Shown here: piece by piece, positions 2 through 30,616 of the stretch | Position numbering within the stretch: position 1 is the first letter of the stretch | How the letters are laid out: each line of letters opens with the position of its first letter | Source of the DNA: Escherichia phage PCM001 | Direction: 5' to 3' (one strand) | Sequence record: OR529306 | Length of the DNA: 33,766 bases | Notes under the pieces: model-generated | What the model saw: the letters and a program-made list of their open reading frames with translations, nothing else | Database searches by the model: none | What the model was told of the DNA's origin: nothing | Position numbers and translations under genes: made by a program

Positions 2-667
2 ATGGCCGATTTAAAAGCTGGTAGTACAACTGGCGGTGCTGTTATATGGCATCAAGGTAATTTCCCTTTAATGCCAGCAGGTGATGACGTCCTGTATAAA
101 ACGTTTAAACTCTATTCAGAATATAATAAACCACAAGCTGCTGATAACGATTTCGTTTCTAAAGCTAATGGTGGTACGTATGCCGCTCGAGTAACATTTA
201 ATAACGGTGTACAAGTACCTTATGCCGTAAATAACACAAATCAAAGCGGTATTTTCCCAGGCAACGGTGATAATGCTACTTTTGCTGTAGCAAATATCGA
301 TATTGTTTCGTGGAATGGTATTGGTTTTAAATCATCGCAAGGTTCAGCAGCTCGAACTGTTGTAATTAATGCACGTAATGGTGATATTAGTACAAAAGGC
401 GTTGTATCTGCTTCAGGACAAGTAAGAAGCGATATGACTGCTCCGGTTGCAGCAAATGATCTCACAAGAAAAGATTATGTTGATGGACGAATAAATATTG
501 TTACGGATAACGCAAATTCTCGTGTATTGCGTAAAGGCGATACCATGACTGGTACTTTAACAGCACCAAACTTTTTCTCACAGAATCCGGCATCCGAGGC
601 TAATCATGTTCCTCGTTTCGACCAGATTGTAATTAAAGATTCTGTTCAAGATTTCGGCTATTATTAA
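2..667 (+). CDS. 36: Long tail fiber protein gp36 (distal-half connector), complete 221 aa
   Basis: ORF track 2..667; N-term [12 protein letters not shown] and C-term [18 protein letters not shown] match recalled T4 gp36 over the full length; gp37 starts 8 nt downstream. Confidence 0.85.
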
Positions 668-675
668 GAGGACTT

Positions 676-3600
676 ATGGCTACATTAAAACAGATACAAT
701 TTAAAAGAAGCAAAGTGGCAGGAGTTAATCCTACTGCAGCTCAATTAGCCGAAGGCGAATTAGCGATAAACTTAAAAGATCGAACTCTTTTTACTAAAGA
801 TGACCTCGGTAATATTATTAGCCTAGGCTTTGCTAAGGGCGGGGATATTAACGGTAATGTAACTCAAAATGGTGATTATTTACAAAACGGCACATATAAT
901 CTTAATGGAACCCAGTTTGTTTATGCAGGAAAGTATATTGAATTCTTGCCAAAAACTGCTGGAAATGGCGCTTGGGCTAACCAACATCAGAATAAAGCCC
1001 CTATCTTTACAGATTTGAGTTCAACTACTTCAACTTCTGAATACCACCCTTTGATTAAGCAACGTTATAAAGATGGTACTTTTTCAGTAGGTACATTAGT
1101 AAGCGAAGGCTCATTTAGAGTTCATTATATTGATTCTACAGCTCCAGACAATTCTAAACACTGGGTCTTTAACCGTAACGGTAATTTTATTGTAGATTCT
1201 GGTAGTATTGAGGTCCGCACAGGTAATATTTCTGCGTCAGGCAATATTAACTCCGCTAATGGTATAGTTTCTGCTCCACAAGTTAATACGAAAACCATTG
1301 TTTTAGACACAAAAGCATTTGGACAATATGATTCGCAATCATTAGTTCAATATGTTTATCCTGGAACAGGCGAAGAAAATGGTGTAAACTATCTTCGTAA
1401 AGTTCGCGCTAAATCAGGCGGAACTATTTACCATGAAATCGCTTCAGCTCAAACTGGTAAGAATGATGAAATTTCTTGGTGGACTGGAAATACACTTACT
1501 ACTAAATTAATGGGTCTTCGTAATGATGGCGCAATGGTATTACGTCGTTCACTTGCTATTGGCACAATTACCACCGATGAAAATACTAACAACTATGGCT
1601 CTCCTACTCCAATGGGAGAAAGATATATTGCTTTAGGTGATGCTGCCACTGGTTTAAAATATATTAAGCAAGGCGTTTATGATTTAGTAGGTAATTGGAA
1701 TTCTGTTGCTTCTATTACTCCTGATAGTTTCCGTAGTACTCGTAAAGCATTATTTGGACGCTCAGAAGACCAAGGCGGAACCTGGACAATGCCTGGAACC
1801 AACGCTGCATTTTTATCAGCTCAAACTCAGGCTGATGGGAATACAGCTGGTGACGGTCAGACACATATTGGTTATAACTCTGCCGGTAAAATGAGTCATT
1901 ATTTCCGCGGTAAAGGAAAAACTAATATTAATACTCAGGAAGGTGTAGAAGTTAACCCTGGTATATTGAAGTTAATCACCGGTGCTAACAGTATTAGCTT
2001 TAACGCTGCAACAGGTAATATTGATTCTACATTAGCCTTTCGTCTTAATAAAGGCATAATTATTGATGGACCTGATAATCAGGGATTCCAATTTAATGCT
2101 CCGACGGCTGTAGATGGTACTAGAAGTATATACTGGAATAGTGGCACACGCCCAGGACAAAACAAAAGTCCTGTTACGGTTAAGGCATGGGGAAGTGCGT
2201 ACAGCACAGGAGATAAATCTCGTGAAACTGTATTTGAAGTTGGCGACGGCCAAGGTTATTATTTTTATGCGCAGCGTGTAGCTCCCGCTTCAGGATCTAC
2301 TGTCGGACCAATTCAATTTAGAATTGCTGGTGGTTTATTAACTTCAGGTAGTATTGTTGCTTCTGGTTCTATTACAACTGAATCTTCTTTAAATGTTAAT
2401 AATGGATTATCTGTAAACGGACAAGCTAAATTCGGTGGAACTGCTGATGCGTTAAGAATTTGGGATGCCGAATACGGTGCTATTTTCCGTCGTTCAGAAG
2501 CATCATTACATATTATCCCAACTCCTAAAGATGCTGGTGAAAGTGGTGGAATAAGTAATCTCCGTCCACTAAGTATTAGTCTTAATAATGGTATGGTTCA
2601 AATGCGCCATTCTGTTACGTTAGGTGATGATGGTGCTGGCGGTAATATGGTGACCGTTGATAATGATAATAAACTTGTTGTTATAACTAGCCATAGTCGC
2701 ATTTCTCCTAATTACCGTATGCAGTTAGGTCAGTCGGCATACATTGATGCAGAATGTACTGATGCTGCACGACCTGCTGGAGCCGGTTCTTTTGCTTCAC
2801 AAAATAATGAAAACGTTCGTGCTCCGTTCTATATGAATATTGATAGAACAGATACAAGCACTTATGTTCCTATTGTGAAACAAAGATACGTTCAAAATAA
2901 TAGTTGCTATTCTATTGGTACTTTAATTAATGGTGGTAACTTTAGAGTTCATTATCACGAAGGTGGTGACGGCGTTTCTACTGGTGCTGTTATAAAGGAT
3001 CTTGGATGGGAATTTAATAAAAACGGTGATTTTTATTCTCCTGGTAAATTAGGCGCTGGTAATGTTCGTATTGGTACTGATGGTAATATCACTGGCGGTT
3101 CTGGTAATTTTGCTAACTTGAATACCACAATAAATAACCTTAAGACGGATATTGTCTCAAGTTATCCAATTGGTGCTCCGATTCCTTGGCCTACTGATAC
3201 ACCTCCTGAAGGTTACGCCATAATGGAAGGTCAAACATTTGATGCTGAGTTGTATCCTAAGTTAGCTGCTGTGTATCCTTCCGGCTCTCTGCCTGATATG
3301 CGTGGTCAAACTATCAAGGGTAAACCATCTGGGCGTGCTGTATTAAGTACAGAAGCAGACGGTGTTAAGTCACATAGCCATAGTGCAAGTGCATCAAGCA
3401 CAGATTTGGGTACTAAAAATACGTCAAGTTTTGATTATGGTAGCAAAACGACTTCAAGCTTTGATTATGGTACTAAGACCAGTAATACCACTGGCAACCA
3501 TAGCCATACAGTGAGTGGTAATACTAGTTCCGCTGGTGCTCACCAACACGCGCGTTCAGGCCCTCAGATACAAGCCGGCATACCCAATAGCATATTCTAT

Positions 3601-5169: not shown

Positions 5170-5442
5170 TTAGTTGTTAGAATACATCGCTAAATGACGA
5201 TAAATATTTTCAAAACCTTCATTGAATTCACTAATCAGTGTTTTCTTTTCTTCGGCAGTTAAATTTGTAATTAGTTTTCTGAACGAATTCTGATTTAGCT
5301 GCCGACCATCTTTTTTAATTCCAATCTCATTCAAGAATCCGATGAAACTTGCTCGGTCTTCAACAATATCTTCCCTAGAGAATTTAATCAAAATAGAAGC
5401 AATAGTAATAATTTCACGTACGATTTCAATGTCTTTATTCAT
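5170..5442 (-). CDS. asiA: Anti-sigma70 factor AsiA, 90 aa
   Basis: MNKDIEIVREIITIASILIKFSREDIVE closely matches recalled T4 AsiA; same length. Confidence 0.9.
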   Translation of the reverse strand: MNKDIEIVREIITIASILIKFSREDIVEDRASFIGFLNEIGIKKDGRQLNQNSFRKLITNLTAEEKKTLISEFNEGFENIYRHLAMYSNN

Positions 5443-5506: not shown

Positions 5507-5650
5507 AGCTTTTTCTACGCTTTTAACGTAATTGGTATAGTCTTCCTGTTCGTACGAGTGTAAGGCCAAGAACTGAACTAATAGTTCATTATAGACTAAA
5601 GCCTCACGCTCACGTTCGGCCTCTACTACGTTCTGAAGATTATGACTCAT
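5489..5650 (-). CDS. Hypothetical small protein (53 aa)
   Basis: track ORF 5489..5704 trimmed to internal ATG at 5650 with AGGAA SD; start overlaps stop of upstream ORF. Confidence 0.35.
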   Translation of the reverse strand: MSHNLQNVVEAEREREALVYNELLVQFLALHSYEQEDYTNYVKSVEKAVYNQH

Positions 5651-8255: not shown

Positions 8256-8322
8256 TTTATTTCTCCAAATTAGTATTTGTTTTGATAGGTCTATACTATC
8301 ATGTTTGAAGCAAAAGTAAACT
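8247..8322 (-). repeat. Copy 2 of 76-bp direct repeat: early promoter, leader, RBS and start codon of the small gene upstream of motA
   Basis: same sequence as 7928..8003 with -10 TAGTAT instead of TATTAT; spacing between copies 319 bp. Confidence 0.85.
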
Positions 8323-8337: not shown

Positions 8338-8362
8338 TGCACAAAAGGGAGCCGAAGCTCCC
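8338..8362 (-). terminator. Intrinsic terminator downstream of gene 52
   Basis: - strand RNA hairpin GGGAGC-UUCG-GCUCCC followed by UUUUGUGCAUUUUU. Confidence 0.5.
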
Positions 8363-8438
8363 TAATCATGTTTGTCCAACCAATACAGCCAAATCACTAG
8401 TGCAGCTATTGCACCGAGAAATCCTAAGGCCAGGGCAC

Positions 8439-9768: not shown

Positions 9769-9909
9769 TCACCATATTAATGAACGAATAACCATTATAA
9801 CATCTGAAATGAAAAGCACTACTTGGATTAGTCCAAACATCACACCATAGTACAGAACCGTAAGCAACAACAAGAGCCCGAAGGCTCCTGCTAAGATTTT
9901 CTTAATCAT
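9769..9909 (-). CDS. Possible small hydrophobic protein (46 aa)
   Basis: MIKKILAGAFGLLLLLTVLYYGVMFGLIQVVLF; TAATG overlap with upstream micro-ORF; not in ORF track (<60 aa); overlaps hairpin/promoter-like signals so coding status uncertain. Confidence 0.3.
   Translation of the reverse strand: MIKKILAGAFGLLLLLTVLYYGVMFGLIQVVLFISDVIMVIRSLIW
9844..9867 (-). promoter_or_regulatory. Candidate MotA-dependent middle promoter for gene 52
   Basis: - strand TTGCTTA (MotA-box-like) 11 nt upstream of TATGGT; immediately 3' of a UUCG-loop hairpin at 9874..9887; lies inside micro-ORF 9769..9909. Confidence 0.3.
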
Positions 9910-10055
9910 TACTCGCCTTTTAATACGTTAAGAAGAGCTAAGACCGCTAAGGTACCTTGTGACACTGCCTGTTGAAATACTGTTGTTTCGCCTGTAACTA
10001 AAGTGTTAACGAATAAAAACGACCAACACAGCAATGCAATAATCCATGCTACCAT
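9909..10055 (-). CDS. Small hydrophobic protein (48 aa), position of T4 ac/stp region
   Basis: MVAWIIALLCWSFLFVNTLVTGETTVF; SD GAGGT 8 nt upstream; not in ORF track (<60 aa). Confidence 0.45.
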   Translation of the reverse strand: MVAWIIALLCWSFLFVNTLVTGETTVFQQAVSQGTLAVLALLNVLKGE

Positions 10056-10107: not shown

Positions 10108-10554
10108 TTAGTAACTCTGCAGAATGAATTTGAAATTATCTGCCAGAAGACGGTTCATTTCGGTGAGTGTTTGATATTCTGATGTATGATTGCGAGTGAA
10201 TGCCAGAGCCAATTGTCCTTTACCATAACCAGTAGTCAGGGGTTTCATGTTCTTAGCTGCAACAAAGATTACATCATATTCAATATTGTTAGTGCCCATA
10301 GTACGGGCTAGTTGCGAACGGCCTTGACGAATGTGAGAAAGAATTGCATCCAACCCTTGTTTAGAACGTTGACGTCCTACAAAGAATCGTGCTGCAACTT
10401 GACGCCAATCAGATGAACCTTTAACAAAGAAGTAAAAACCTTCACGAGAACGAAACTCTTTAGAAACTTCGGAACCGTATTCGCCATTACGAACTACTGC
10501 AACAACTTCACCGCCAACTGCCAGAAGGTCTTTACGAGTTAAATATTTGGACAT
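10108..10554 (-). CDS. ndd: Nucleoid disruption protein Ndd, 148 aa
   Basis: [29 protein letters not shown] and C-term [32 protein letters not shown] match recalled T4 Ndd. Confidence 0.85.
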
Positions 10555-12202: not shown

Positions 12203-12227
12203 AAGAAAAAAGGGGACCGAAGTCCCC
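12203..12227 (-). terminator. Intrinsic terminator downstream of rIIB
   Basis: - strand RNA hairpin GGGGAC-UUCG-GUCCCC followed by UUUUUUCUUU; 6 nt after rIIB stop. Confidence 0.6.
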
Positions 12228-16853: not shown

Positions 16854-18669
16854 AGGACATCCATTCTTTACGAAGTTCTGAATCATCACCCAACAACATT
16901 TCAAAGAGTTCTTTCCAATTTTCAGGAAGTTTAACTACGTCGTACACAGGGTTCTGAATCATTTCACGATATTCTGACTTTTCAAGGGAGCCTAATCCCT
17001 TGATGTATCTAATACTATGCTTAGGCAGTGTATCTTTAACTTCTTCATACTCAGCTACAGTATAAAACCATTTTTGAGTTTTGCCAATTTGTGCAATAAT
17101 TACAGGCGTTTTAACAAAGCGAATACGTCCTTGTTCAAACAATTCAGGCCAATTACTAAAGAAAGCAAGCAAAGCCGGGTAAATACTTCCAAGACCGTCA
17201 TGATCGGCATCGGTCATAATTGCAATATTACGATAGTTTGTATTCTCTGCCTTTTCACCAAGAATAAGACCTGTGATAGCACAGATATCAAAGAGCTCTT
17301 TGTTCTTCATCATATCAGCATATGACATACCCCAGCTATTCATCACCTTACCGCGTAATGGGAATCCACCGTGTAGTTCACGGTCACGAACATCAATGAG
17401 ATAACCAATTGCCGAATCACCTTCTGTTAAGAACAATGTCGTATCTGCGTCTTTACCGCATTGGTTAGCTTTAATATGCTTATGAACCTTAGCTTTAGTT
17501 GCCTTTTTAGCTGCTTTAGTTTCTGCAGCCTTTTCTGCCGCCAATTTACGAGCTAATGCTGCTTCAACAATAGGCATAATCAAGGCTTCGTTTTTAAGAA
17601 GTGCCTGAGCAATTTTCTTAGCATCCAATTGGATATGATTACGAATATCACCATACGTTGACGTTAAACGTTCTTTAGTCTGAGAATCAAAACGCATGTT
17701 GCTCATGTCTCTAATAAACATCAACATTGTGAGGCATTCTTTAACACGAGCTTTAGTGACTTCAATACCCTTATATTTCTTTTTAATGCCGGGCAAAAGA
17801 TGTTCGCAGATATCATCCATTACACATTCAACATGATGACCACCATTTTTAGTATGGATGTTATTCACATAAGTTAAATGACGGAAGCCATCTGGTGATG
17901 TTGTGAATGCTATAGAGACTTTATCATTTTCTTGAATGATGTTATCTTCGCCAAATTGTTTAGCAAATCGTTTAAAATTACCATCAACCTTTTTACCATT
18001 AAATGTGAACTTGATATCAGGATAAACGACTGCCAATGTTTGAAGTCGGTCTAAAGTAATATCTAAATAAATTTGAGATAAATTATGCTCTTCAAATGAA
18101 GAGAAATCAGGAGTGAAGATTACTTTAGTGCCTTTACCTTTAGATTTCTTAGAAGACCATGATTTGTTTTCCATTCCGTTTGAACAGTTAACAGTGATTT
18201 CATTTTCGCCATCTGACGTGATGCCTGTAAACAACGTAGAGAAGATATTAGTTAAACTACTCCCGACACCGTTCATACCACCAGTCTTGCGTTCAGAGTC
18301 ATCACCGAAGTTACCACCGGCCTTTGGAATAGTCCAGGCTGCTACAGGCCCAGGAATTTGTTCACCTGTTTGGTCGGTAACTAAACCTTGAGGAATACCA
18401 CGTCCGTTATCTTCCACCGAAACTTGATTATTTTTAATTTGCACATCAATTTTATTTGCAAACTTAAATGATGTACGAATAGCTTCATCAACCGAGTTGT
18501 CAATAATCTCATCGATTAATTTAACCAGACCAGGAACATATTCAACTTGTTGATATTTACCAAACAAAAAACGCTCGTGGGCTTCTTTAGCCGAAGAACC
18601 AATATACATACCACTACGTTTCTTAATATGTTCTACATCTGACAATACCTTAATTTCATTTTTAATCAT
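16852..18669 (-). CDS. 39: DNA topoisomerase II large (ATPase, GyrB-like) subunit gp39, unsplit 605 aa
   Basis: N-terminal GHKL ATPase pattern (IDEIIDNSVDEA, EDNGRGIP, GLNGVGSS) plus TOPRIM-like C-terminal part in one ORF; SD GAGGAG. Confidence 0.9.
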   Translation of the reverse strand: MIKNEIKVLSDVEHIKKRSGMYIGSSAKEAHERFLFGKYQQVEYVPGLVKLIDEIIDNSVDEAIRTSFKFANKIDVQIKNNQVSVEDNGRGIPQGLVTDQTGEQIPGPVAAWTIPKAGGNFGDDSERKTGGMNGVGSSLTNIFSTLFTGITSDGENEITVNCSNGMENKSWSSKKSKGKGTKVIFTPDFSSFEEHNLSQIYLDITLDRLQTLAVVYPDIKFTFNGKKVDGNFKRFAKQFGEDNIIQENDKVSIAFTTSPDGFRHLTYVNNIHTKNGGHHVECVMDDICEHLLPGIKKKYKGIEVTKARVKECLTMLMFIRDMSNMRFDSQTKERLTSTYGDIRNHIQLDAKKIAQALLKNEALIMPIVEAALARKLAAEKAAETKAAKKATKAKVHKHIKANQCGKDADTTLFLTEGDSAIGYLIDVRDRELHGGFPLRGKVMNSWGMSYADMMKNKELFDICAITGLILGEKAENTNYRNIAIMTDADHDGLGSIYPALLAFFSNWPELFEQGRIRFVKTPVIIAQIGKTQKWFYTVAEYEEVKDTLPKHSIRYIKGLGSLEKSEYREMIQNPVYDVVKLPENWKELFEMLLGDDSELRKEWMS

Positions 18670-18691: not shown

Positions 18692-18716
18692 ATTCTATCA
18701 TCCGAAATCTAAAGCA
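18692..18716 (-). promoter_or_regulatory. Candidate MotA-dependent middle promoter for gene 39
   Basis: - strand TGCTTTA (MotA-box consensus) 12 nt upstream of TAGAAT; about 25 nt upstream of gene 39 ATG. Confidence 0.4.
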
Positions 18717-18734
18717 AAAAGGGCCGAAGCCCTT
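18711..18734 (-). terminator. Intrinsic terminator upstream of gene 39 (possibly bidirectional)
   Basis: - strand RNA hairpin AAGGGC-UUCG-GCCCUU followed by UUUUUGCUUU; T-rich on the + strand side too. Confidence 0.55.
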
Positions 18735-25183: not shown

Positions 25184-25335
25184 AATATTTTCCTCTGTCT
25201 TACGGACGTTAGGTCATTTAGCTGATGGGTCTATAATATCATGCCCTCAGGTAGTGTACACTCTTTTTTCGTAAAATGCTTTAATTTTTTATGTGTTATA
25301 ATGGTTCTGAGTTCCATCCGGTTATTCCAATCCAG

Positions 25336-28126: not shown

Positions 28127-28156
28127 AACAAAAAAAGGAATCCCGAAGGATTCCTT
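28127..28156 (-). terminator. Intrinsic terminator downstream of soc
   Basis: - strand RNA hairpin AAGGAAUCC-UUCG-GGAUUCCUU followed by UUUUUGUU; 8 nt after soc stop. Confidence 0.65.
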
Positions 28157-29665: not shown

Positions 29666-30616
29666 CTAAAATTTCTTGTGTGTTGCATTTTCTTTCATTA
29701 CCATATCATTCACATCCTTTGATCTCCATGGAGCTCGGTCCCAGAACATGACACGTTCGCCTGCATCAACTAATCGCTTCATGCGAGCTATAGTATCCGG
29801 ATGCCTAGGTTCATTATCCATTACCCATACCCGACGTTCTTTAAATGGTACCACATCTAAATCTATTGAGCCGCCTGTAATAGCGATTGCATTGGGTATG
29901 AATAAACTATCAATAGGGCCTTCCATTACCCAGACGTCTCCTTCCTTAACACGTTCAACACCATAAATTTTTGTTGCAGACTCAAACGCTTTAATAGTGA
30001 TATATTTCTGAGGAGCATCTTTACGAAGTGCACGTCCTTGGAATGACTCAGCCTTCCCGTCTTTATTAAAAATAGGAATCACTAAACGCGGCTCAGGAAT
30101 CTCTTTCTTATACGTGCCTGGTTGAATCTTGTTGACCAATTTAGGCCATTCTAATGTGAACCATAATCTGTTCCATGATTCTTTAGGAATGCATCGAGAC
30201 TTAACATATTTCACAATAGGATGCTCTTCAGGCAGCTTGTCCAGACGAGAACAAGACGGCAAAGAATTTATAGTCTTTTTCTCTGGCTCTGGCTTAGCTT
30301 CAGGAACCTTTTCAATCTTTGGTTCCATTCTAGCTTTTTCTTTACGAACTTCCATTAGATATTCGCGATAAAGCTCTTCATCATACTCTTTTAAGTATCC
30401 GGAAATTGTATTGTGGTATTGACAATTATAACAATGTACATTACCAGGAGTACCGCCATAATACCATCCGCGAGCTTTCATTGCATCTGTCTGGGAGTCG
30501 CCACAAACTGGACATCGAAATGTTAATTTAAATGTGCTTGAATTATTGATTTGTCTAAAACGAGGTAGGTGAGAAAACGCACGATAAGCAAATTCATTAT
30601 CTATCCATTCAGCCAT
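29666..30616 (-). CDS. 61: DNA primase gp61 (zinc-binding plus TOPRIM), 316 aa
   Basis: WIDNEFAYRA..NNSSTFKL.FRCPVCGDS ... GWYYG ... CYNC and VERVKEGDVWVMEGPIDSLF match recalled T4 gp61; SD GGAG. Confidence 0.9.
   Translation of the reverse strand: MAEWIDNEFAYRAFSHLPRFRQINNSSTFKLTFRCPVCGDSQTDAMKARGWYYGGTPGNVHCYNCQYHNTISGYLKEYDEELYREYLMEVRKEKARMEPKIEKVPEAKPEPEKKTINSLPSCSRLDKLPEEHPIVKYVKSRCIPKESWNRLWFTLEWPKLVNKIQPGTYKKEIPEPRLVIPIFNKDGKAESFQGRALRKDAPQKYITIKAFESATKIYGVERVKEGDVWVMEGPIDSLFIPNAIAITGGSIDLDVVPFKERRVWVMDNEPRHPDTIARMKRLVDAGERVMFWDRAPWRSKDVNDMVMKENATHKKF

Follow-up and report, generated by a model that had tools for sequence, protein, structure and literature searches.

Two T4-type junctions of hairpin and middle promoter upstream of the topoisomerase genes 39 and 52 in an RB69-like phage: apparently fused at gene 39, separate within micro-gene 52.1

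RNA hairpins whose UUCG loop is closed by a C-G pair, C(UUCG)G, are reportedly a classical feature of phage T4 transcripts. By the standard definition, a T4 middle promoter carries a MotA box, (a/t)(a/t)(a/t)TGCTT(t/c)A, that is centred at -30 and followed after 11-13 nt by a -10 element, which needs to be an excellent one, and genes served in this way receive RNA from two sources, extended early transcription and the middle promoters themselves (Hinton 2010). Two such promoters concern us here: T4 P39, with its start at 5349 (Guild 1988, as listed in Hinton 2010 Table 1), and T4 P52, with its start at 165227 (Stoskiene 2007, as listed in the same table), which is printed there as '65227', an evident misprint because the entry stands between 153011 and 166702. 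T4 also has terminators inside the open reading frames (ORFs) mobE and segF; that of mobE has a weak U-tract and halts about 30% of transcripts, and the middle promoter downstream of it serves nrdB (Edgell 2010, PMC2988022). In this work we compare with these systems two loci of Escherichia phage PCM001, studied in a stretch of 33,766 nt from sequence record OR529306 (hereafter, the window): the junctions of hairpin and middle promoter upstream of gene 39 and upstream of gene 52, the latter lying inside a micro-gene named 52.1. All the genes relevant here sit on the - strand of the window.

The elements of both junctions are present in the window, conserved among related phages and orthologous to T4 sites. 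As judged from the alignments, these are two T4-type junctions of terminator and middle promoter that are built differently, since the two elements appear fused at gene 39 and separate at gene 52. The whole picture, namely a fused junction at gene 39 together with a hairpin and a separate P52 inside 52.1, is one that we regard as on balance probable, and MotA/AsiA-dependent starts at both promoters are predicted. Most of this is known biology, as P39 and P52 are already known in T4 and their RB69 orthologs were predicted in 2006. With 95-99% identity to Mosigvirus genomes of the RB69, JS09, HX01 and ATK47 type, the window can be assigned to an RB69-like T-even phage (Mosigvirus); MotA and AsiA are both encoded in it, according to Pfam profile matches, and of 38 related loci 33 have motA downstream of gene 52. 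The T4 GenBank records carry no promoter or terminator features at the gene 39 and gene 52 junctions, and a scan of the whole window with Rfam covariance models gave no match at the gathering score.

At gene 39, the arrangement follows that of T4 P39 and of the RB69 promoter Pm:5538 (Nolan 2006) element by element: 5' of the gene stand a stop codon, a C(UUCG)G hairpin, a T-run, GCTTTA, 12 nt and a -10, and then comes a leader of about 16-20 nt before the ATG. Around position 5349, T4 reads AAAGGCC-UUCG-GGCCUUU, AGCTTTA, 12 nt and TATAAT, with +1 seven bases further on, which puts GCTT at -30..-27 and the -10 at -12..-7 on sequence aligned with window positions 18716..18692. The anatomy of the window is equal, with a predicted start at about 18685 and the gene 39 ATG at 18669. 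T4 differs in its stem (GGCC/GGCC, against GGGC/GCCC in the window), in its box (AGCTTTA, against TGCTTTA) and in its -10 (TATAAT, against TAGAAT); moreover, the T4 start is mapped, whereas that of the window and of Mosigvirus is predicted. Between the window and RB69 there is no difference at all across hairpin, MotA box and -10.

The gene 39 site passes a MotA-type scan: its box matches at 7/7 positions, the spacer has 12 nt and the -10 is TGn-TAGAAT. Its hairpin, a GC-rich stem followed by a U-tract, is listed by a generic terminator scan with the tail TTTGCTTTAG, an ARNold terminator is annotated on its counterpart in ATK48, and in RB69 a TransTerm terminator (5535-5546, score 100) overlaps the predicted promoter Pm:5538 (Nolan 2006). 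We regard the site as the ortholog of the mapped T4 P39. An earlier examination of the window, made from its letters without database searches (the sequence-only reading), had described a hairpin and a MotA promoter at this place, and both agree with T4 P39 and with RB69 Pm:5538.

The conservation of this junction was surveyed in 38 sequences upstream of gene 39 (the window, T4 and 36 IMG/VR loci). A GC-rich hairpin ends 1-6 nt before the GCTT core in 27 of them; eight are without any hairpin, several of which (e.g. L072-74) retain a MotA-type promoter, and the remaining three have a hairpin that does not adjoin the box. In many lineages, the T-run of the hairpin extends into the A/T-rich stretch on the 5' side of the MotA box. 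Six stems (AAGGGC, AAAGGCC, AAGGCC, (AAG)GGAGC, AGGAGCC and AAAAGAGCC), described as covarying variants, and five loops (UUCG, UUAG, UACG, UAAC and CUAGU) were found by direct tabulation of the hairpins; column-wise covariation on a MAFFT alignment was dropped because stems of unequal length were misaligned. The idea that the terminator U-tract doubles as part of the MotA box, put forward by the sequence-only reading, holds at gene 39 for the flank of the box in these 27 sequences, and the sharing is a conserved trait that had been documented before at the sequence level.

In T4, where 54 of the 58 listed middle promoters were examined, a C(UUCG)G hairpin abuts or overlaps the MotA box at four: P39, P47, PmobB and P43. 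At P43 (NC_000866, about 29954..29967), the hairpin GGGGC-UUCG-GCCCC occupies -34..-21 and its closing pair and loop form the GCTT core, so that a C(UUCG)G hairpin can itself supply the MotA box. The fusion of terminator and MotA box is thus a recurrent minority design and no general rule; such a design is to be expected where terminator and promoter must share a gap of 50-70 nt.

At gene 52, the promoter that corresponds to T4 P52 is found in the 3' half of 52.1. The MotA-type scan reports two sites on the correct strand directly upstream of topoisomerase genes, 18716..18692 and 9818..9794. In the latter, 12 nt separate the box from TGtTATAAT, the start is predicted at about 9787 +/- 2, and the site is one of only three matches in the window to the stringent pattern TGCTTY-N-11..13-TATAAT, for which 0.09 are expected. 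It aligns with T4 at 165227, where GCTT stands at -30..-27 (in GTGCTTTTC) and TATTAT at -12..-7. T4 P52 and the RB69 promoter Pm:164206, whose prediction (Nolan 2006) spans exactly the aligned stretch, share with the window GTGCTTTTC, 12 nt and TGtTAT(A/T)AT on the same codons of 52.1, the difference being that T4 has TATTAT in place of the perfect TATAAT of the window. Additionally, the record of Yersinia phage fPS-2 carries a 'predicted middle promoter' on these same 52.1 codons.

A codon alignment of 12 lineages bears on whether these bases are kept for the protein or for the promoter (gp52 is 47-99% identical to that of the window across the fetched loci). The base before CTT is invariably G across valine, leucine, threonine and methionine codons, and the leucine codon is CTT in 11 of the 12 lineages, L016 having CTG. 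Similarly, the base before GTT is invariably T across aspartate, arginine, asparagine and cysteine codons, and the valine codon is always GTT. As a consequence of these invariant codon bases, GCTTT and TGnTAT are preserved, and P52 is under selection at the DNA level, beyond the amino acids. We take 9818..9794 to be the real P52; some 50 nt separate it from the hairpin upstream, so that hairpin and promoter are not fused at gene 52.

Other phages arrange the region before gene 52 in different ways. L038 (IMGVR_UViG_2974741249_000001, about 1100..1200) has lost two thirds of 52.1 by a deletion on the 5' side, and with them both hairpin and MotA box; only a TGTTATTAT -10 is left upstream of gene 52. 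More distant T4-like phages without 52.1 (L028-L032 and L036, about 1100..1200) have, in the intergenic gap before gene 52, a GC-rich hairpin that adjoins or overlaps a TGCTT...TATAAT-type promoter; in the example of L031, AACTGGTTAAG-TTTCAT-GCTTAACCAGTT is followed by TTGTGTTTATAAT, and in L028 the hairpin is placed after the -10, in the 5' leader.

The sequence-only reading had located the gene 52 promoter at the hairpin itself, in a fused unit at 9887..9844 in which the U-tract would be a working MotA box (TTGCTTA), followed after 11 nt by TATGGT as the -10. All the strings that it named do exist on the - strand at the positions it gave. Moreover, the equivalent place reads TGCTTTA-12-TATTAT in L012, L013, L034 and L044 and TACTTTA-12-TATTAT in L035, and MotA tolerates deviant boxes (Hinton 2010). 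By the standard definition, however, the site has a TGCTTAC box with 5/7 matches, a 10-nt spacer, one base under the known 11-13 range, and a TATGGT -10 with 4/6 matches, and the MotA-type scan does not report it. The loose pattern TGCTT-N12-15-TANNNT occurs 15 times in the window, where 8.7 +/- 3.1 are expected, which is at chance level. Its GCTT sits 4 nt off that of the TGCTTTA found after the hairpin in T4 and is missing in most other lineages, the sole T4 gene 52 start in the list of Hinton 2010 is the downstream one at 165227, and the annotators of RB69 (Nolan 2006) and of fPS-2 chose the downstream site as well. We consider a promoter at this place very unlikely; it appears to have been mis-assigned and is best replaced by 9818..9794, and with it the proposed fusion at gene 52 falls away.

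The ORF in which both elements lie, 52.1, matches Pfam DUF7396 over residues 1-46 of 46 (E 1.6e-22, 79.9 bits, cutoff 27) and is annotated as gp52.1 in T4, RB69 and ATK47. ORFs of this type, with 44-46 aa, were found in 30 sequences; in 11 representative lineages the frame is open at 44-46 codons and the +1 frame has 4-7 stops. Comparison of the 52.1 stretch of the window with that of T4 gives 16 synonymous vs 13 non-synonymous codon differences, and its AUG overlaps the stop codon of ac (TAATG). These features argue for a genuine conserved micro-gene, with the hairpin in its 5' half and the P52 ortholog in its 3' half. It possibly carries the gene 52 ribosome binding site as well, judging from its conserved TGG-stop ending. 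In this regard, the clash of coding and regulatory readings suspected by the sequence-only reading stands as an overlap, and a wider one than it supposed, since the hairpin and the true P52 are both inside the conserved 52.1, but not as a conflict, because the readings coexist.

The 52.1 hairpin exceeds what had been described from the letters. Its core is formed by GAGCC (9887-9883), UUCG (9882-9879) and GGCUC (9878-9874), and the whole stem has 11 pairs, five of them G-C, between 9893 and 9868. It folds with a free energy (dG) of -16.5 kcal/mol and a z-score of -3.85, only 1 of 200 shuffles being equally stable, and it is present in both the minimum free energy (MFE) and the centroid folds of its 131-nt context. 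Three G-U pairs make the sense structure more stable than the antisense one (dG -15.0 vs -8.6), and such pairs render the 52.1 hairpin specific to the sense strand in most lineages and variants.

Across the 30 ORFs, 28 contain a GC-rich hairpin, in 16 sequence variants and at least six unrelated stems, and those of L020 and L040 have none. The hairpin reads GGGCUA-UUCAU-UAGCCC in T4, GGGCUAC-UCG-GUGGCCC in L012, GCGGUC-CUAGU-GGCCGC in L014, CUCCGGC-GCUUUG-GCCGGAG in L017, UGGCCGUC-AUUGC-GAUGGCCA in L019 and GUGGCAGC-UAUU-GCUGCCGC in L025. No part of 52.1 has diverged more than the hairpin segment, in which the window and T4 share 41% identity, most of the remainder being 81-100% identical; the segment nevertheless folds in both. 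Within a family, changes in the stem preserve pairing (U-A to U-G in L012, U-G to C-G in L043). The register of the hairpins varies among lineages. Each 52.1 ORF was recoded 1000 times with synonymous codons and its folding compared with the natural hairpin. No recoding was as stable in the window, L019 and L023, and 1 was in L021, 2 in L017, 6 in L025, 14 in T4 and 24 in L012; in L014, L016 and L024 the number was about 80-110, so that their hairpins are marginal against this null (p about 0.1). When the codons of the window ORF were permuted, 1 of 1000 permutations was as stable. Taken together, these results are good evidence that the 52.1 hairpin is a selected sense-RNA structure, and the hairpin of the sequence-only reading is, in this respect, real and conserved.

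With the T4 C(UUCG)G hairpins the hairpins of the window share the UUCG loop closed by C-G. The loop of 52.1, in contrast, does not seem essential, as RB69 has UUAG and other lineages have unrelated loops. In RB69 (L005, 164149..164289), UUAG in place of UUCG comes with a phenylalanine to leucine codon change, and tetraloop identity varies even within Mosigvirus. Cleavage by RegB, at GGAG, was considered as a purpose of the hairpin and dropped, since the GGAG of the 5' arm in the window is missing from T4 and other lineages.

As to its function, the 52.1 hairpin is most likely, by analogy with mobE, a leaky terminator or a former of 3' ends for the early ndd-ac transcripts, placed ahead of P52. 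Early sigma-70 transcripts through ndd and ac would end partly at the hairpin, or be trimmed back to it, and the remaining ones would pass into gene 52. As MotA and AsiA accumulate, P52 would contribute transcripts beginning some 20 nt ahead of the 52.1 stop codon, which would encode gene 52, not 52.1. In line with this notion, an ARNold terminator is annotated on the ortholog of the hairpin in two genera, in ATK47 and in D5505, a phage of the T4 type. The T4 terminators inside mobE and segF (PMC2988022) resemble it in their GC-rich hairpin, weak U-tract and location in the 5' end of a short ORF, and also in that a downstream middle promoter secures expression of the next essential gene. They differ in that the promoter of 52.1 lies inside the same ORF and that the product of 52.1 is a conserved membrane micro-protein where theirs are homing endonucleases; for mobE termination has been measured, and for 52.1 it is predicted.

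Several observations weigh against strong termination at this hairpin. The tract that follows it, UUGUUGUUGCUU, is interrupted, with U at 6/8 positions after the 5-bp core and at 4/8 after the extended stem; T-richness 3' of the stem is not above the synonymous null in most lineages, and the generic terminator scan of the window omits the hairpin. An approximate d'Aubenton-Carafa score falls below zero (-11 to -20); on the same approximate scale the clear terminators at 12227..12212 and 28156..28135 reach +34 and +18, and T4 mobE has -31. Termination within a translated ORF would also have a cost, as non-stop 52.1 messages would arise. A literature search returned no transcript-end maps for this phage or for T4 at both hairpins and no described 52.1 terminator. 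Finally, total RNA of genes 39 and 52 is not lowered in T4 without MotA, at 5 min after infection.

The last point comes from published T4 RNA sequencing (RNA-seq) data in which a motA amber mutant is compared with wild type (PMC6024815 Table S1). The fold changes (amber/wild type) are 1.28 for gene 39 and 0.98 for gene 52, 1.61 for 39.1 and 1.45 for ac, which lie upstream of them, and 0.30 for dda, known to be MotA-dependent. MotA-independent expression of genes 39 and 52, which the sequence-only reading had held to speak against its proposal, is thus in part what T4 displays, in that total RNA is unreduced. It follows that both hairpins must be leaky and that the promoters supplement read-through and do not gate expression; from the ratios of the fold changes, the middle promoters may give a minority share of the RNA, 20-35% by a crude estimate. 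Only fold changes between conditions were used. Read densities as a measure of termination were rejected, because featureCounts on 100-bp paired-end reads undercounts genes shorter than about 200 nt, T4 stp (81 nt) receiving about 3 reads. In the same table, reads of T4 52.1 (NC_000866 165209..165349) fall in the motA amber mutant (0.77, adjusted p 0.004) while those of the adjacent ac rise (1.45); the 52.1/ac read ratio is MotA-sensitive, in counts that are heavily biased by read length for such short genes.

The main rival to a leaky terminator is a pure role in RNA stability or processing, in which the hairpin would be a barrier to 3' exonucleases that protects a cleaved ndd-ac message, or a barrier to 5'-end-dependent RNase E. 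It would explain that the stem is under selection and the U-tract is not, and the position of the hairpin, which floats between nt 17 and 61 of the ORF and between 25 and 58 nt from P52, suits an element that needs only to follow ac. The undiminished gene 52 RNA of T4 without MotA, which implies high read-through, fits as well. On the other hand, there are the ARNold calls in two genera, and the mobE hairpin, likewise internal to an ORF and with an even weaker U-tract, does terminate about 30% of transcripts; both roles can coexist, and we consider stability in place of termination unlikely. A still simpler view, that the hairpin is a functionless by-product of encoding a transmembrane helix rich in glycine, alanine and leucine, could invoke GCN and GGN codons, which favour GC-rich palindromes, together with the two ORFs without a hairpin (L020 and L040) and the three marginal ones (L014, L016 and L024). 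It seems extremely improbable to us, given that synonymous nulls are beaten in eight representatives with at least five unrelated stem families and that substitutions within families (L012, L043) retain pairing.

Less likely than a stability role, and more interesting, is a link to translation, by which the hairpin would throttle synthesis of the 52.1 membrane peptide or would act as an attenuator that ribosomes closely trailing the polymerase prevent from forming. The overlap of the 52.1 start with the ac stop (TAATG) implies coupling, the hairpin starts 17-22 nt past the AUG in five lineages, and delayed-early T4 RNA classically requires protein synthesis (Hinton 2010). In other lineages, however, the hairpin begins 32-42 nt into the ORF, too distant for an effect on initiation; it covers no ribosome binding site, and no alternative anti-terminator pairing was found in the 131-nt fold, so that we give such a device a small chance only. 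In the most specific form of this idea, the stem would be opened by ribosomes coupled from ac to 52.1, so that transcription continues into gene 52, and uncoupled polymerases would terminate. This is a long shot; if true, the 'delayed early' expression of a T-even gene and its classical sensitivity to chloramphenicol would have a basis in an intrinsic terminator, and it would become clear why so many lineages retain a hairpin within a translated frame.

The 141 nt of 52.1 hold several superimposed layers, namely a membrane peptide, an RNA hairpin, a MotA box and an extended -10. As promoter bases stay constant while amino acids change, 52.1 offers a clean natural case of dual coding, and it is a handy place to study the division of labour between leaky ORF-internal terminators and middle promoters in expressing an essential replication gene. 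Our literature search found no prior demonstration that a hairpin inside DUF7396 is kept up in structure and not in sequence across T4-like lineages, nor that P52 bases are fixed through amino-acid changes. We see these two points as modest additions and not as a new kind of regulatory system; besides, the position of the gene 52 middle promoter is corrected for RB69-like phages. The features discussed are collected in Table 1.

Table 1. Positions in the window of the junction elements and of the genes around them.
Feature	Coordinates	Strand	Basis or remark
RNA hairpin of 52.1, UAGCAGGAGCC-UUCG-GGCUCUUGUUG	9868..9893	-	nt 17-42 of ORF 52.1
MotA box TGCTTTT of P52 ortholog	9812..9818	-	Val-Leu-Phe codons of 52.1; context GTGCTTTTC at 9819..9811
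Extended -10 TGtTATAAT of P52 ortholog	9794..9802	-	TG 9802-9801, TATAAT 9799-9794
TTGCTTA (9867-9861), 11-nt spacer, TATGGT (9849-9844) of the sequence-only reading	9844..9867	-	judged a chance resemblance from Leu/Tyr/Gly codons
Gene 39 hairpin AAGGGC-UUCG-GCCCUU	18719..18734	-	overlaps stop codon (18735-18733) of upstream ORF; terminator-like in generic scan
P39 ortholog: TGCTTTA (18716-18710), 12 nt, TGaTAGAAT (18700-18692)	18692..18716	-	MotA-type scan
Micro-gene 52.1, 46 aa, hydrophobic	9769..9909	-	Pfam DUF7396
Gene 52, topoisomerase II medium subunit, served by P52	8439..9764	-	PF00521; annotation of related records
Gene 39, unsplit 39+60 topoisomerase large subunit, 605 aa	16852..18669	-	further upstream than the 52 region
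ac (acridine resistance)	9909..10055	-	final early gene before the 52.1 hairpin; annotation of related records
ndd	10554..10108	-	annotation of related records
motA, activator needed at P39 and P52	7304..7936	-	PF09114 (5.7e-39), PF09158
asiA, co-activator	5170..5442	-	PF09010, 2.4e-32

GC-rich UUCG hairpins number five on the - strand of the window and none on the + strand. At 28156..28135 and 12227..12212 (-) stand two more strong terminator hairpins of the C(UUCG)G type, each with a long U-tract; one of them directly follows rIIB and is followed in turn by a ribosome binding site only. Another hairpin, AGGGAGC-UUCG-GCUCCCU at 8363..8346 (-), comes right after a small hydrophobic motA.1-like ORF that overlaps the end of gene 52; about 24 nt past it stands an early-type promoter, GTTTAC-17-TGaTAGTAT (8321..8293, -), which makes a further junction upstream of the motA region. 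Lastly, a top-quality MotA-type match on the + strand, TGCTTTA-13-TGtTATAAT at 25277..25302, lies in a 152-nt gap between two - strand genes, together with an early-type promoter of the - strand, TGTACA-16-TATTAT; the + strand match may be a middle promoter in divergent or antisense orientation, unless it is one of the rare chance matches.

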